A stretch of DNA of 64,000 bases. Origin: Devosia sp. Its GTDB lineage: Bacteria > Pseudomonadota > Alphaproteobacteria > Rhizobiales > Devosiaceae. Position 1 is the stretch's first letter. The number at the start of each line of letters is the position of its first letter. The stretch is taken from the NCBI GenBank assembly GCA_015657675.1, contig JACDQI010000107.1:2706-66705 (forward strand). Reading direction: 5' to 3'. Below, one piece after another: positions 49,964 through 57,224 of this stretch. The position numbers were made by a program, and so were the translations under genes. The notes below the pieces were generated by a model. The model did not search any database and was not told where the DNA came from. It was given only the letters and a program-made list of their open reading frames with translations.

Positions 49964-50737
49964 ATGATCTCGCTGAACTGGCTGCCCGAGACGGCCTATC
50001 TCTATATCCTGATCTTTGCCCGGGTCGGCACGCTGCTGATGCTGCTGCCGGCACTTGGCGAGTCGATCATTCCGGCACGCATGCGGCTGAGCTTTGCGCT
50101 GGTGTTCTCGCTGGTGCTCTATCCCCTGCTGACGCCGTCATTGCCGGCCATGCCGACGGACATGAGCGAGGTCATCGTCCTGCTCTTTCACGAACTCATG
50201 GTCGGCCTGATCCTGGGTGGCATCACGCGGCTGATCATGATGGCGACGCAGGTCGCCGGATCGATCATCGCCTTCCAGACGGGCCTCTCGGTGGCCATGG
50301 CGGCCGATCCGACCAATGGCGGCATCCAGGGCGCCATCATCGGCAGCTTCCTCGGCCTGCTCGGGGTGACGCTGATCTTTGCGACGGACCTGCACCATGT
50401 GGCGCTGTCGGCGATCTTTGACAGCTACATGATCTTTTCGCCGACCTCGCCTCTGATGTTCGCCGACGCGCTGCAGATGGCTATCCAGTCGATCGCCAGC
50501 GCTTTCGTGATCGGCGTGCAGATGTCGGCGCCGTTCATCGTGCTTGGGCTCGTGTTTTATCTGGGCATCGGCATCCTGGGCAAACTGATGCCGCAACTGC
50601 AGGTGTTCTTCATCGCGATGCCCGCGACCATCGGTGTCGGTCTGGTGCTGATCGCCATCCTGCTGACCATGATGATGGGCTGGTATCTCACGCATTTCGA
50701 AAGTGAGATGGCGACGCTGCGTGGCTTCGGGCCGTGA
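49964..50737 (+). CDS. fliR: Export protein FliR
   Basis: FARVG, QVAGSIIAFQTGL, TDLHH, LMPQLQVFF. Confidence 0.95.
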   Translation: MISLNWLPETAYLYILIFARVGTLLMLLPALGESIIPARMRLSFALVFSLVLYPLLTPSLPAMPTDMSEVIVLLFHELMVGLILGGITRLIMMATQVAGSIIAFQTGLSVAMAADPTNGGIQGAIIGSFLGLLGVTLIFATDLHHVALSAIFDSYMIFSPTSPLMFADALQMAIQSIASAFVIGVQMSAPFIVLGLVFYLGIGILGKLMPQLQVFFIAMPATIGVGLVLIAILLTMMMGWYLTHFESEMATLRGFGP

Positions 50738-51816
50738 GCGACGAAGCCCCGGAACAGTCTTCGAAAACAGAAGACCCCTCGCATAAAAAGCTCGAGGACG
50801 CCCACAAGCGCGGCGACGTCGTCAAGTCGCAGGAGGTGACCACCTGGTTCGCGCTGGCTGGGTCGGCGCTGGTATTTGCCGCCCTGGCGCCCGGGACCTC
50901 GGTAGCGCTGTCGGATAGTCTCAAGGGCCTGATCGCCAACGCCGACCTTTATGAAGTGGGAAGTTCGGCGTTCGGGGCCATCTTTTGGGAGATCATGGGC
51001 GCCATCCTGCTGGTGTCGATGCTCCCGATGATCGTGAATGCCGCGTTTGCGACGGCAGGTAATCTCATCCAACACAAGCCGCTGATCTCGACCGACCCGA
51101 TCAAGCCGAAGTTTTCAAAGATCAATCCGATCAGCGGCCTGCAACGTCAGTTCTCCAAGGAAGCGCTGGTCAATTTCGTCAAGGGACTGATCAAGCTGGC
51201 CGTCGTCAGCGGTGCGCTCTGGTACGTGATGGCGCCCGAGATGAGTCAGATGGAAGTGTTGATCACGTCTGACGTGAGCATGATCCTTCCCGACTTCGTC
51301 TATCTGGGTAACAAGATTTTTGTGGCAGTGATCGCGATCGTCACCATCATGGCCATCGCGGACTATGTCTACCAGCGCAACCGCTGGTGGAACCGGCTGA
51401 AGATGACGCTGCAGGAGACGCGCGACGAATACAAGCAGATGGAAGGCGACCCCAAGATCAAGGGGCGTATCCGGGCCATCCGGCAGGAGCGTGGTCGCAA
51501 GCGGATGATGGCCGCGGTGCCGGAAGCCACCGTGGTGATCACCAACCCGACCCACTATGCCATCGCGCTCAAGTACGACCGCGACATGGCGGCGCCGATG
51601 TGTGTTGCCAAAGGCGCCGATGCCATTGCCCTCAAGATCCGCGAGATTGCCAAGGGCGCCGACGTGCCGATCGTCGAGAACCCGCCACTGGCGCGGGCTC
51701 TGTTTGCCAGCGTCGAAGTCGACCAGAGCATCCCGACCGAACACTTCAAGGCGGTGGCGCAGGTCATCGGCTTTGTCATGCGGATGAAGAACAAGTCGAG
51801 CTGGAAGACCAGTTAG
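50734..51816 (+). CDS. flhB: Export switch protein FlhB
   Basis: KTEDP, EGDPKIK, NPTH autocleavage motif, VENPPLAR. Confidence 0.96.
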   Translation: MSDEAPEQSSKTEDPSHKKLEDAHKRGDVVKSQEVTTWFALAGSALVFAALAPGTSVALSDSLKGLIANADLYEVGSSAFGAIFWEIMGAILLVSMLPMIVNAAFATAGNLIQHKPLISTDPIKPKFSKINPISGLQRQFSKEALVNFVKGLIKLAVVSGALWYVMAPEMSQMEVLITSDVSMILPDFVYLGNKIFVAVIAIVTIMAIADYVYQRNRWWNRLKMTLQETRDEYKQMEGDPKIKGRIRAIRQERGRKRMMAAVPEATVVITNPTHYAIALKYDRDMAAPMCVAKGADAIALKIREIAKGADVPIVENPPLARALFASVEVDQSIPTEHFKAVAQVIGFVMRMKNKSSWKTS

Positions 51817-51965
51817 GCCCTTGTCATTGCCTCGGCCTGTTGAAAGCGCGTGGTTCGACCAGCAAATCGGCTGGCGACCTCCTCATGCGGGCGGCCATTT
51901 GCTAGAGCTTTGAGGGGCGTGTGATTCGCCCTTCGCTTTGAGGTGTCGGGAGCTCGACTATCTAG

Positions 51966-54521
51966 ATGGCCATCACGCCGCTCGACGAGGACAGCTATCC
52001 CGATCCCCTGATCAGCCGGCCGCGCAGCGCGGCCTCGCTGTGGCGCGTGGTGGCGCTGGCAGCGTTCTTCATCATCGTGGCCGTCGGCCTGTCGATGCTG
52101 GGCGATCGCATTCCGCCCGATCTGATCCTGGTGTTCCTCGGTCTGCTCGCGGTGGTCGGCGTCTTCTGCCTTTTTGCCATTGCGGCGGGTCTCTTCCGTC
52201 TGACTACCGGCGATGAGACTCGTTCGGTATCGCGCTCGATCGTCGACAGCCTGCCGTTCGGCGCGGTGGTGACTGATCGGGATGGCAAGATCTCTTACGT
52301 CAACGCGTACTACGGCACTTTCCCCGGGAGCCTTACCGATGGCGTGCCGGTGGGTGTGCCGCGGCTCTTTGCCGGCCAATCGGAAGCCAGTGAAGCGATC
52401 TATCGCTTGAGCCGCGCCGCGCGCGATGGGCGCCCCGCCAGCGAGGATATCCAGCTGATCGGCGGCCTCGGCGGTGGATTGGGTGGCAGCAGCAAGGCAG
52501 CCTGGTATCGCGTCAGCGTCCGCTCTCTGCCGCCGGTGGAGAGCGCCAACAAACCACTGGTGCTCTGGTCGGTCGAGGACATCACCCGCGATCGCGAGCG
52601 GCAGGACAATGCCTTCCGCGAACTGCAGCGCGCCATCGACTATCTCGACCACGCGCCGGCTGGGTTCTTCTCTGCTGATGCGAAGGGCTCGATCCAGTAT
52701 CTCAACTCGACGCTGGCCGACTGGCTCGGATACGACCTCGCCGAGTTCGAGACCGACGCGATCAGGCTCGATACGCTGGTGCGCGGCGACGGCGCCAGCC
52801 TCTTGATGCATGGCCGCAGCGACGGCGAGATCCGCACCGAGATCATCGATATCGACCTCGTGCGCCGCAACGGCACGAGTTTTCCGGTGCGCCTCTTGCA
52901 CCGCGCGGCCCGGCTCGCCGATGGCGAACTGGGCGAGACCCGCACGCTGGTGCTCGACCGTCGCGGCGGTATCAATCAGGAAGAGGCGCTGCGCGTCTCC
53001 GAAATCCGCTTCTCGCGGTTCTTCAACGACACGCCGTTTGCCATTGCCACGCTCGACAAAGACGGCCGTATCGTGCGCACCAATGCGCCCTTCAGCCGGA
53101 TCTTTGGCTGGTCCGGTGGCGAGCAGACGATCGAAATGCAGCCGATGGCCGAACTCATCGCCGAGGCGAGCCGCGAGCGCTTCCATGCTGCCGTGGCGGC
53201 GGCAATCGCCAACCGTTCCGAGATCGAGCCGGTCGATGCGCTGCTGGCGCGCGAAGGCGACCACGCGGTGCGGCTTTATGTGTCCGGTTCGGAAGAGAGT
53301 GCGGCTTCGCCCGAGCGGGTGAATGTCTATTCGCTGGACATGACCGACCAGCGCAAGCTCGAAGCGCAGTTTGCGCAGGGGCAGAAGATGCAGGCCGTCG
53401 GCCAGCTGGCGGGCGGCGTGGCGCATGACTTCAACAACGTGCTCACCGCCATCATCGGCTTTGCCGACTTGCTGCTCTTGAAGCACAAGCCGGGCGATCC
53501 GTCGTTCAATGATCTGATGGCGATCAAGAACAGCGCCAATCGCGCCGCGGGTCTGACCCGCCAGCTGCTGGCCTTCTCGCGCCGACAGACGTTGCGCCCG
53601 CAGATCCTCGAGATCACCACCCATATCGACGACTTGACCGTGCTGCTGAAGCGCCTGATAGGCGAGGCGATCACGCTCGACGTCGATCACGGTCACGCCA
53701 TCTGGCCGGTGAAGGCGGACCTGGTGCAGCTCGAGCAGGTGGTGGTCAACCTCGTGGTCAATGCGCGCGACGCCATGCCCAATGGCGGCAAGATCACTAT
53801 CCGCACGCGTAACGTCACCGAGGCCGAAAGCACGGGCATGACCTATACGGGCATGCCGGCCGCCGACTATGTGCTGATCGATGTCGAGGATACCGGCACC
53901 GGCATGCCGCCCGAGATCATCGAGAAGATCTTCGAGCCGTTCTTTTCTACCAAGGAACTGGGCAAGGGCACGGGGCTTGGTCTCTCGACGGTCTACGGCA
54001 TCATTAAGCAGACCGGCGGCTTCATCTATCCGGAGTCGGTGGTCGGCAAAGGCACGACCTTCAAGATCTTCCTGCCGCGCCACATCGCGACCGAGGGTGA
54101 AGTGGTCGCCAAGGTTGTCGCGGCGCCGGTCAAGGACCTCACCGGACACGAACGTATCCTGCTCGTCGAGGACGAGGACAATGTCCGAGTGTTCTCCGCC
54201 CGGGCGCTTCGCACCACCGGCTATGAGGTGTTCGAGGCGGAATCCGGCGAGGTCGCACTCGAGATCCTCGAAGACGAGAACTACCAGATCGACCTGATGA
54301 TTTCCGATGTGGTGATGCCGGAAATGGATGGGCCGACGCTCCTGACCAAGGTGCGCGAGCGGATGCCCGACCTCAAGGTGATCTTCGTTTCCGGCTATGC
54401 CGAAGAGAACGTCCGTCAGGACATTGCCGACAACCAGAGCGTCGAGTTCCTGCCCAAGCCGTACTCGCTCGACCAGATCAACTCCAAGGTCAAGGACGTA
54501 ATGGGCAAGATCTCGGACTAG
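51966..54521 (+). CDS. cckA: Hybrid PAS histidine kinase CckA
   Basis: Two TM helices, PAS domains, [33 protein letters not shown], receiver domain; directly after flhB. Confidence 0.92.
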
Positions 54522-55756
54522 TGCTCTGGCCCCGGCAGGCCTATATCGGGGGCAGCGCATCAGCCGGGACGAGTATCATCGACACACCGCTTTCCAAGCC
54601 TGACCAGTTCTTTTCCGCCCTGCAGGCGGCCTTCGCCGATGGCAGCCTCGTGCGTATTGCGCTGCGCGCCTATGTCGGCGACCACGAGGCGCTGAAGACG
54701 GTCGACATCAAGCCGGTGATCATCAAGCGGCAGAACCAGCTGAGCTTTACCTGGCACTACAAGACGCGCGACGTCGTCAAGAACCACGATCTCGACGAGT
54801 CGATGGAGACGCTGCGCGGCATTGTCGGCATCGAGTTTAATCTGGCGCAGCTCTTCACCACTGCCGGCGATTGGAGCCTCGACTTCCAGGGCAAGTCGCC
54901 AAAACTCAAGCAGAGTGCGGCGACGCAGACCGCGCCGGTGTCACTGGCGCATGACCGGGCCAAGGCGCGAGCGATTCCGGCCGGCAAGCCGTGGCTGCGC
55001 GATCTGGGTGTCACCGATGCGGAGGGCAAAGTCATCCCCTCGGCGCAGGACAAGTTCCGGCAGATCAACCGCTATGTCGAAATCCTGGGACCGCTGCTCA
55101 AGGCCATCCGGCCGGACCGGCTCAAGCGTGTCGTCGATATGGGCTCTGGCAAAGGCTACCTGACATTTGCGGTCGCCGACTTTCTGGCGCAGACGCTGCA
55201 GTCTGGGGCGCAGGTGGTTGGGGTGGAGATGCGCCCCGATATGGTGAGACTCTGCAACGAGATCGCCGGCAAGGTGGGCCTCGCCCAACTCGGCTTCGCG
55301 CAGGGCTCAATCGCCGACTATGACAGCGCCGGAGCCAGCGTGCTGATCGCGCTGCACGCCTGCGACACGGCAACCGACGACGCGATTGCCAAGGGCATTG
55401 CGGCGGATGCCGAGCTGATCGTGGTGGCGCCCTGCTGCCACAAGCAGATCCGGCGCGAGATCGAGGCGGCCGCGGCGAGCACGCCGCTCGACTACCTGCT
55501 GCGCCACGGCATCTTCGTCGAGCGGCAGGCCGAGATGGTGACGGATGGAATTCGTGCGCTGCTGCTGGAAGCGCACGGCTATTCGAGCAAGGTGTTCGAG
55601 TTCATCTCCGATCAGCACACTCCCAAGAACGTGATGATCGTGGGCGAACGCACCGGCCGTGGCCGCAATGCTGCGGCGCTGGAAAAAGTCGCCGCCGCCA
55701 AGGCCTTCCTCGGCATCAGGCGGCACTATCTCGAAACGGCTTTGGGGCTGGAGTAG
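54521..55756 (+). CDS. SAM-dependent methyltransferase (Methyltransf_32-like)
   Basis: DKFRQIN, VDMGSGKGYLTF, ALHACDTATD, PCCH, HTPKN; start uncertain (54521-54578). Confidence 0.9.
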   Translation: MLWPRQAYIGGSASAGTSIIDTPLSKPDQFFSALQAAFADGSLVRIALRAYVGDHEALKTVDIKPVIIKRQNQLSFTWHYKTRDVVKNHDLDESMETLRGIVGIEFNLAQLFTTAGDWSLDFQGKSPKLKQSAATQTAPVSLAHDRAKARAIPAGKPWLRDLGVTDAEGKVIPSAQDKFRQINRYVEILGPLLKAIRPDRLKRVVDMGSGKGYLTFAVADFLAQTLQSGAQVVGVEMRPDMVRLCNEIAGKVGLAQLGFAQGSIADYDSAGASVLIALHACDTATDDAIAKGIAADAELIVVAPCCHKQIRREIEAAAASTPLDYLLRHGIFVERQAEMVTDGIRALLLEAHGYSSKVFEFISDQHTPKNVMIVGERTGRGRNAAALEKVAAAKAFLGIRRHYLETALGLE

Positions 55757-55775
55757 GCGGATGCGCCCAAGCGCC

Positions 55776-56092
55776 GGACGACCAGGTGGCCTCCGGATGC
55801 TGGGTAGTGAAGCGGCCCCGGCGAGGCTTTGCCTCAGATGCGGTCTTCCGCGTTGGTAGTGGGCGAAGCGTGGCCTCGCCGGGGACGACCGGGTATGTTG
55901 TCCAGCGCATCAGAACCCCGGGGCACCAGCCGTTCCCCGCACCAAACCAGGCATCCGCGCCGCTGCCGGCATACGGAGGCCCTTTGGCAGGCTGTGCAGC
56001 ACCTGCCGGTGTCCAGCGGGACAAGGCGAACCAGTCCCGATCCTTTCAGCTCCAGCAGGACGGATCGACACCCGTCCCACCCAGTCACGCCC
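55776..56092 (-). ncRNA. Putative large structured non-coding RNA or RNA-like repeat element, family unknown
   Basis: 14-bp terminal stem joining 56077-56092 with 55776-55789, at least eight nested stems, G-U wobbles and a UUCG loop on the minus strand only; no credible ORF. Confidence 0.6.
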
Positions 56093-56195
56093 TCCAACCA
56101 CTCGTCATGATCTCGCTTCGGAAGGGCGATGAAAGAGTTTCGCACGGGCAAAAGGAGCGGGGATAAGTTGGGGCGATCTTTCGCTCGGATCGAGG

Positions 56196-57224
56196 TTACG
56201 CCACCTTGCCGTTGGGCAGGGGTGTGCCGGGGGCGACGAGGCGTTTTTCGGCCAGCGCCGTCCAGAAGTCTTCGGGGATCTTGGTGTTCCACCAGTTCAG
56301 CGTGCCCTGCAGCTCCTCGGGCGAGCGCGGGCCGGTGAGGACGTTGCAGACGGCCGGATGGGTCAGCGGGAACTGTAGTGCAGCCGCGCCGATCGGCACC
56401 TTCCATTCGGCACAGAAGGCTTCGAGATCGCGGACACGCTGCACGATATGCTCGGGTGCTGCGGCGTAGTTCCACTTGCCGGTGCCCATCAGCGCGCCAC
56501 CATTGAACGGCGCCCCGGCGATCACCGAGGCGCCGCGCTTGATGCAGGTGGAGAGGAACGGGTCGAGCGAGGTCTGCTCGAGCAGGGTGTAGCGGCCGGC
56601 GAGCAGGAAGATGTCCCAATCGCCCAGCTCGAAGGCGTCCATCAGGACTTCCCATTCGTTGACGCCAAAGCCGATGGCCTTGACCACGTCGGCGTTCTTG
56701 AGCTCCTGCAGAGCGCGGTAGCCGCCGGTGGCGAGTTGCTTCCAGTAGACGGCGTTCTGCTCGGCGCCGTGAGTCATCACGCCGATGTCATGGACCAGCA
56801 GGATGTCGACGCGGCTCAGACCCAGACGCTGAAAGCTGGCGTCGAGCGAGCGCATGATGCCGTCATAGCTGTAGTCATAGACCTGCTCGAATGGGAACGG
56901 TCGGGCCCAGGCGTGCGGATAGTCGCGCTCGGCTTCCGAGCGGATGGGGCGGAGCAGGCGGCCGACTTTGGTGGAGAGTGCGACGCCGTTCTGGCGATAG
57001 CGCAGGGCATCGCCCACCAGGTGCTCGGCGCGGCCATAGCCATATTGTGGGGCGGTGTCGATCAGGCCGATGCCGGCATCGATCGCTGCGCTGATGGTGG
57101 CGCGGGCCTGGTCGTCGGGCACGTCCTGGAAGATGCCGGCGGCGGTGGCGCTGCCACAACCCAGGGTGGTGACACGCAGGCCGGTCTTGCCGACCTGACG
57201 GGTTTCGAACTCTTGCCTGTTCAT
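56196..57224 (-). CDS. Aldo/keto reductase (D-threo-aldose/L-fucose dehydrogenase-like)
   Basis: DTAPQYG, STKVGR, YDYSYDG, LVHD, LLAGRYTLLEQ. Confidence 0.92.
   Translation of the reverse strand: MNRQEFETRQVGKTGLRVTTLGCGSATAAGIFQDVPDDQARATISAAIDAGIGLIDTAPQYGYGRAEHLVGDALRYRQNGVALSTKVGRLLRPIRSEAERDYPHAWARPFPFEQVYDYSYDGIMRSLDASFQRLGLSRVDILLVHDIGVMTHGAEQNAVYWKQLATGGYRALQELKNADVVKAIGFGVNEWEVLMDAFELGDWDIFLLAGRYTLLEQTSLDPFLSTCIKRGASVIAGAPFNGGALMGTGKWNYAAAPEHIVQRVRDLEAFCAEWKVPIGAAALQFPLTHPAVCNVLTGPRSPEELQGTLNWWNTKIPEDFWTALAEKRLVAPGTPLPNGKVA

Follow-up and report, generated by a model that had tools for sequence, protein, structure and literature searches.

The 439-nt non-coding gap that separates a methyltransferase gene (+) from an aldo/keto reductase gene (-) in the window, the whole stretch of 64,000 nucleotides of Devosia DNA analysed here, very probably harbors one copy of a structured-RNA mobile module of the Devosiaceae that is protein-free. 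The module occupies this gap between two convergent stop codons and consists of a promoter-like box and a -10 hexamer followed by about 370 nt of structured sequence, about 410 bp in all. Our tentative reading of its spread, held with rather less than even confidence, is that of a selfish promoter-RNA module which would be copied as DNA by repeat-linker recombination and homogenized by conversion, its RNA acting in cis. An earlier note on the same DNA had described a structured element on the minus strand between convergent genes, and this description stands: the element is non-coding, its pairs covary on that strand, and RNA-type tetraloops are found there. The boundaries given at the time, 55776..56092, are too narrow and leave outside both the part best conserved by BLASTN (56094-56120) and the promoter (56168-56136). 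ORFs overlapping the module have no Pfam match, and indels among copies rule out a shared reading frame. The parts of the module and its flanking genes, in window coordinates, are:

55757..56168, minus strand: whole module, i.e., promoter, structured RNA gene, and tail (family alignments, boundaries)
56159..56168, minus strand: conserved upstream box ACTTATCCCC, promoter-associated (box counts across copies)
56136..56141, minus strand: -10 hexamer of sigma70 type, nAnnnT (about 17-18 nt after the box)
56088..56130, minus strand: P1, a 5' hairpin with bulge and apical loop, from the predicted +1 at about 56130 (covariation)
56114..56118, minus strand: 5' strand of PK-a, in the P1 bulge (covaries with the strand after P5)
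56097..56111, minus strand: apical stem-loop of P1, with a predicted kissing contact between its CGA and the P3 loop (loop-loop covariation)
56079..56088, minus strand: 5' strand of the long-range helix P2 (shuffle test)
56058..56078, minus strand: P3 hairpin, whose GUCG loop is the kissing partner (two-sided changes in 8/9 pairs)
55895..56057, minus strand: variable domain, including a UUCG hairpin and other hairpins (about 48-261 nt across subfamilies)
55885..55894, minus strand: 3' strand of P2 (family fold, shuffle test)
55816..55884, minus strand: P5 domain, with a 12-bp stem, an inner stem, and the 55851-55840 hairpin (family fold)
55810..55814, minus strand: 3' strand of PK-a (shuffle test)
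55774..55796, minus strand: terminal hairpin with internal loop (family alignment)
55757..55773, minus strand: degenerate 3' tail or right end, abutting the methyltransferase stop codon (tail comparison)
54521..55756, plus strand: SAM-dependent methyltransferase gene, flanking, outside the module (PF13679, E 1.9e-36)
56196..57224, minus strand: aldo/keto reductase gene, flanking, outside the module (PF00248, E 4.7e-37)

In the helix order of the family fold, an A-rich linker lies between the variable domain and the 3' strand of P2. Upstream of the methyltransferase gene (49964-54521), genes of flagellar export, identified as FliR/FlhB-like by inspection, are found together with a PAS hybrid histidine kinase recognized by Pfam, which we take to be CckA-like.

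The upstream box is present with at most two mismatches in 120 of 126 copies, and 102 of these 120 carry AnnnT at 15-19 nt from it, compared with 73 of 592 control windows. The identical box/-10 pattern occurs 17 times in the genome of the window (G000), three times at module copies and several times upstream of ordinary ORFs, and it is because of the latter that box and -10 are read as a promoter. A sigma70-type promoter inside the module would start the RNA at the base of P1, the start site at about 56130 being derived from the spacing to the -10 hexamer. We take the box to resemble a DnaA box, and a GANTC site, presumably of the CcrM type, overlaps the -10 region in 39 of the 120 copies.

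Support for the structure comes from covariation, the folding of a single sequence being weak evidence. In a sequence-only MAFFT alignment of 38 rows, 96.1% of cells are paired, versus 79.7% when shuffled and 31-50% when slid, and 120 cells show two-sided changes. Among 51 divergent rows, two-sided changes occur at 19 of 19 pairs, a count biased by fitting, as these rows were aligned to the model. For the long-range pairs 44 of the 51 rows were used, one without a P5 call and six truncated or mis-parsed rows being dropped; with kinship uncontrolled, PK-a has 4.77 Watson-Crick pairs versus 3.66±0.12 with shuffled partners and P2 has 5.64 versus 4.43±0.15, and in neither case is the observed value reached by any of 500 shuffles. 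The kissing loop reads CGA/UCG in 48 of the 51 rows, CGG/CCG in L211, and, beyond these rows, CGC/GCG in copies L430 and L431, which makes three states overall, while two of the 51 rows, one a truncated copy and one a mis-parse, misfit. On these alignments, local stems, long-range helix, pseudoknot, and kissing loop all show compensatory changes, so that the check for covariation among homologs proposed in the earlier note turns out positively for local and long-range pairs alike. GNRA tetraloops (72 sense versus 20 antisense) and UUCG tetraloops (15 versus 5) are biased toward the sense strand in 96 copies. The RNA core has few invariant bases, exchangeable peripheral domains, and two tertiary pairings.

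The fold proposed earlier was right in several local stems and wrong in its long-range pairs, and it did not include the promoter, the 5' hairpin, or either of the two pseudoknots. Three of its elements exist and form part of the family fold, namely the GUCG hairpin (56078-56058), the 12-bp stem 55884-55873/55827-55816 (12/12 paired), and the 55851-55840 hairpin. The UUCG hairpin, as well as the hairpins from 56007 to 55913, falls into a domain that lacks conservation among copies. The 14-bp closing stem is not conserved and is incompatible with P1, P2, and the terminal hairpin: the bases on its 5' side pair with 56128-56120 (P1) and 55894-55885 (P2), and those on its 3' side fold into the local terminal hairpin. 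Two other proposed stems, 55974-80/55789-95 (7/7) and 55947-56/55795-803 (8/10), are complementary in this copy, where both connect the variable domain with the 3' end, and have no counterpart in the family; the first of them competes with the terminal hairpin. Folding energy, suggested as a further check, gives z-scores of -1.39 (minus) and -2.28 (plus) for the 331 nt of the note and of -2.46 (minus) and -1.88 (plus) for an extended 381 nt; since the 331 nt are only modestly better than shuffles, folding energy alone neither supports nor refutes the structure.

In a number of copies (L035, L043, L051, L281, L286, L289, L299, L211, and others) the 3' strand of PK-a can alternatively pair with downstream sequence as a local hairpin just 3' of P5, mutually exclusive with the pseudoknot. 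This alternative pairing is a possible switch and is without counterpart in the window copy. In L355 and L358 (G501), a palindromic repeat of about 80 nt sits between P2 and P5 of otherwise intact copies.

Contigs from two RNA runs of one study cover a copy of about 97% identity at the same site with a depth of 8.5-10. They continue past the predicted start into the flank, neighboring genes have similar depth, and neither transcript ends nor a discrete transcript are seen in the two runs. Runs X17-X20, with their small share, carry no weight as evidence. The module likely gives rise to a compact RNA by transcription. Few large bacterial RNAs have several covarying tertiary contacts, and a number of those described before turned out to be ribozymes or guide scaffolds. 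Natural minimal versions of about 250 nt (L402 type), variants in the hundreds, and covariation in three states make the module RNA directly testable.

By BLASTN, module sequence is found in 40 of 60 genomes of the same genus, often many times per genome, and in 0 of 40 genomes from other families, and an exact-pattern scan retrieves 120 loci in records titled Devosia, Devosiaceae, or unclassified relatives. A search with a covariance model built on the 5' domain gives matches in at least 90 of 150 Devosiaceae genomes, covering 14 of 19 genera. Model searches outside the Devosiaceae were made with the 5' domain: in order-level samples, 1 of 150 genomes, itself a family member, is matched by a first model, and a refined one matches two of the four family genomes and none of the 146 others; in a class-level sample 0 of 150 genomes are matched, each time among the best 29 candidates per genome, so that weak relatives, or ones whose 5' domain differs, may be missed. 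A spread throughout the Rhizobiales, tentatively suggested in the earlier note, is thus not borne out, the model having matched only Devosiaceae. A motif search allowing two mismatches gave 16 single matches in 400 genomes at the class level, regarded as chance for want of the promoter box and the hairpin context; one match in a viral contig, located inside a long ORF, is likewise considered chance, and plasmid and phage collections gave no match with one subfamily as query.

Copy number ranges from 0 to 27 per genome, with 27 copies in G501 and 24 in single-contig G021 (best 29 candidates scored), and no copy is found in single-contig G047 nor in five other genomes of the same genus. BLASTN of the genome of the window finds one copy, and a profile search finds four (C211, C164, C28, and the divergent C227). 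Many divergent subfamilies exist side by side in one genome. One subfamily possesses a conserved upstream extension of about 200 nt, rich in short TCAGA/TGAC repeats (L098, L140, L144, L156, L159, L167, L120, L139, L161, L162, and C164 and C28 of the genome of the window).

The module is multicopy, dispersed, and patchy. At the window site it is present in 0 of 19 relatives that have both flanking genes in one locus; nine of them have gaps of at most 44 nt, several with overlapping stops, three have other palindrome doublets, and seven have another gene. From these comparisons, the module at the window site is an insertion, and empty alleles exist. The stop-to-stop site orthologous to window 55757-56195 is a shared insertion hot spot. 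The earlier note had offered a multi-junction structured RNA or a non-autonomous mobile element as alternatives; both are supported together, the first by covariation and the second by a multicopy family whose relatives have the site empty or otherwise filled. Of 121 copies, 49 are located between convergent genes, compared with 113 of 941 long gaps of G000 (rough gene calls), and all four orientations of the flanking genes occur. Because flanking gene orientation varies, the module is not a cis-acting riboswitch, as had been concluded from the window, and a riboswitch or other cis-regulatory RNA is rejected also for lack of a fixed position 5' of a gene class. The suggested search for linked genes yields no recurrent flanking ORF, and no flanking protein family recurs except in a 9-locus cluster, scattered on both sides, and at shared orthologous sites. 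Some insertion sites are common to different species. L211 (C227 of G000) and L431 (G021), divergent copies with differing kissing-loop states, both follow the same upstream gene, which suggests an old shared insertion.

This distribution bears on the idea that the module is a multicopy non-coding RNA useful to the host, e.g., an RNP scaffold, a protein sponge, or a defense RNA, which travels as passive cargo in repeat mosaics and whose fold and promoter are kept by host selection. Such a role is favored by the fold and promoter that almost every copy retains, in 14 of 19 genera, by a promoter class shared with ordinary genes, and by the sites common to different species. We nevertheless consider it rather doubtful, given that the module is not found in complete genomes such as G047, a copy number that varies from 0 to 27 per genome, the many divergent subfamilies in one genome, and the lack of a recurrent gene neighborhood.

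Within a genome, identity among copies is 0.89-0.98 in the transcribed core, 0.74-0.93 in the promoter, and mostly about 0.5 in distant flanks. At shared orthologous sites, copies are 0.96-0.99 identical to their paralogs versus 0.75-0.82 to their orthologue, which we read as gene conversion. Left ends are sharp in some genomes and show shared extensions, nested and ragged, in others, and the 3' end is fairly sharp. Neither terminal inverted repeats (4.79 versus 4.87 shuffled) nor a target-site duplication (direct repeats 5.5 versus 5.35±0.1 within the subfamily) are found; a direct-repeat excess seen at first disappeared under the within-subfamily control. A MITE is therefore rejected, and a CT core at both ends or a TTAT-type IS200/IS605 junction reduces to tail frequencies without a fixed junction. 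Among the copies inspected, no autonomous ORF-bearing version is seen. The 5' and 3' domains are at most 400 nt apart in 237 and 67 (redundant) matches; out of five pairs of distant domains four are neighboring second copies and the fifth is L551.

A SINE-like retro-element, in which read-through transcripts would be copied by a reverse transcriptase acting in trans, is consistent with the fairly sharp 3' end, the nested, ragged 5' extensions of some genomes, and the homogenized transcribed core, and yet it seems quite unlikely. Copies include the promoter, which lies upstream of +1, target-site duplications are not found, and the reverse transcriptase domain PF00078 is found in only 2 of 5 genomes and is absent from single-contig G021, some of whose copies are 99% alike. 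As the promoter travels with the copy, mobility via an RNA intermediate is unsupported.

Comparison with Rfam 15 gives no match at E ≤ 1 in the window, in agreement with the absence of known-family signatures noted earlier, and 40 family loci yield sub-threshold hairpin noise over or near the module with none at gathering score. A group I or group II intron or derivative is rejected in view of the missing Rfam match, the intergenic location, the own promoter, and a differing helix order. Searches for mobilizing proteins find the Y1 transposase in 0 of 5 and TnpB in 0 of 5 genomes, a DEDD domain over the cut-off in 1 of 5, and IS110 absent from the high-copy genomes G021 and G566; the high-copy genomes tested have no reverse transcriptase, Y1 transposase, TnpB, or IS110 in common. 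The lack of a common mobilizing protein family is in line with a ribozyme, i.e., a double-knotted core which itself might cleave, ligate, or strand-transfer nucleic acid and so cause insertion, and so is the architecture of the core, which like that of large ribozymes is compact, has two tertiary pairings and an exchangeable periphery, and contains few invariant bases. We regard this as unlikely, as there is no Rfam ribozyme match, no loop is complementary to the flanks, and the promoter is copied, which is impossible for RNA alone.

Very unlikely, in our judgment, is an orphan guide RNA, similar to omegaRNA or bridge RNA, that serves a nuclease or recombinase encoded elsewhere. Guide scaffolds resemble the module RNA in size and pseudoknots, and the absence of terminal inverted repeats and duplications would fit. 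Against it stand TnpB and Y1 transposase missing from the five genomes searched and the absence of IS110 from G021 and G566, the lack of a HEARO or other Rfam match, and the observation in 43 copies that no RNA segment tracks the flanks, matches of the P5 interior or the core to the flanks showing no excess. IS110 elements lack terminal inverted repeats, as does the module; unlike in bridge RNA, no target or donor guide loops are found in the module, and the IS110s in these genomes target palindromes. According to PMC13565253, HEARO turned out to be the omegaRNA of IscB, and it is, like the omegaRNAs of IscB and TnpB, a large pseudoknotted RNA tied to a mobile element; unlike these, the module has no guide or Rfam match, no copy inspected has a partner ORF beside or inside it, and TnpA/TnpB are not found in the genomes tested. 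No ORF for IscB, IsrB, or TnpB recurs beside or overlapping the module RNA. In G052, an IS110-family element occurs in five copies (L251, L254, L256, L258, L260) at the same point of a DUF559-type palindrome that has a CT core, and is a REP-targeting IS110; where it lies beside two module copies of that genome, its target is the flanking palindrome and not the module RNA.

GOLLD, ROOL, OLE, and raiA are large orphan non-coding RNAs that resemble the module in size, multi-junction fold, and strong covariation; unlike them, the module is dispersed, with up to 27 copies, empty alleles, and no gene context. ERIC, BOX, and RIME are multicopy structured intergenic elements of inconsistent orientation to genes. 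The mobile or repeat candidates in PMC11109978 are of this kind as well; unlike these candidates and ERIC, BOX, and RIME, the module has its own promoter, two covarying tertiary pairings, and no transposase nearby. We found no description of the module family in the open-licence literature, including the available portions of PMC11109978, PMC13565253, and PMC4181065. The RNA class and the module architecture agree with none of the families compared here, the multicopy structured repeat as a general idea being already known.

Many copies have palindromes next to them that correspond to the NTS/SRM repeats of Ssn nucleases described in PMC11893778. SRMs are found in 68 of 171 module gaps versus 3 of 185 other gaps of at least 100 nt of the same loci, and in 49 of 1278 long gaps of G000; about 60% of the copies, the window copy included, have no SRM in the gap. 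The enrichment of SRMs near the module might arise simply because both are tolerated at the same sites. One mosaic of G566 exists both with and without the module, and the comparison places the module in its C-rich linker, immediately 5' of the SRM hairpin. PMC11893778 reports that SsnA cuts single-stranded DNA a few nucleotides upstream of its repeat and does not bind RNA, and it names Devosia among the SRM-rich genera. SRM/NTS and REP/BIME mosaics are like the module intergenic, enriched between convergent genes, and built into mosaics; an SRM is a DNA hairpin of 20-50 nt without promoter or RNA, whereas the module, at about 410 bp, has knots that span long distances and itself lacks an SRM motif. 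An Ssn homolog is detected with one query in 105 of 150 genomes, including module-free ones such as G047, and with this one query is not found in G052, G635, G005, G041, G019, and G613, all with at least 10 copies; among these Ssn-negative genomes, single-contig G052 and G635 have 16 and 18 copies. Five copies have an Ssn gene no more than 1 kb away; gene and copy then belong to one SRM mosaic, and the distance between them varies. In L322, L337, and L343, the site orthologous to window 55757-56195 is occupied by a doublet, either of SRMs or of DUF559-type palindromes. A module-like box/-10 unit is found ahead of a small ORF in G667 (L601:~1050-1450), where an SRM doublet lies upstream of it and an RNA copy follows directly.

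As SRM hairpins act as single-stranded DNA according to PMC11893778, their association with the module might mean that its fold also acts as single-stranded DNA, a substrate for a hairpin-binding nuclease, and not as RNA. Pairing on one strand fits single-stranded DNA too, and no discrete RNA was seen. Such a role is hardly likely in view of the conserved promoter, the position of P1 at the expected +1, and the bias of GNRA and UUCG tetraloops to the sense strand.

The reading that we prefer, a selfish module copied as DNA, starts from a dispersed, patchy, multicopy unit with empty alleles and a double-knotted fold that covaries on one strand, from which a sigma70-type promoter within the module would produce an RNA beginning at the base of P1. 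In G566 module and promoter occupy the C-rich linker, a few bases away from the SRM hairpin on its 5' side, and presumably do so elsewhere. This SRM-proximal linker would be the zone of the reported cutting of single-stranded DNA by SsnA; at other loci the module sits beside stop codons. Spread might occur by repeat-linker recombination, which is likely also the process behind the SRM mosaics, and gene conversion would homogenize the RNA core among copies. The nascent RNA may act in cis, holding the template open or recruiting a host nuclease or recombination protein; such an action would account for the retention of promoter and fold in almost every copy. It is conceivable, but in our opinion not very likely, that the module represents a new class of protein-free mobile element in bacteria, in which a double-pseudoknotted RNA, as ribozyme or as adaptor of a host nuclease (Ssn, DUF559), drives the copying of its own gene; this RNA would then possibly also assemble the palindrome mosaics in Devosiaceae. 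The module provides a handle on the spread of transposase-free palindrome mosaics in Alphaproteobacteria.

Two further neighbors of module copies, both on the other strand, are a 20-codon DUF559 fragment just upstream of a copy (L137:2644-2703) and an FMN riboswitch near another (L311:1953-2102), the latter being apparently incidental.
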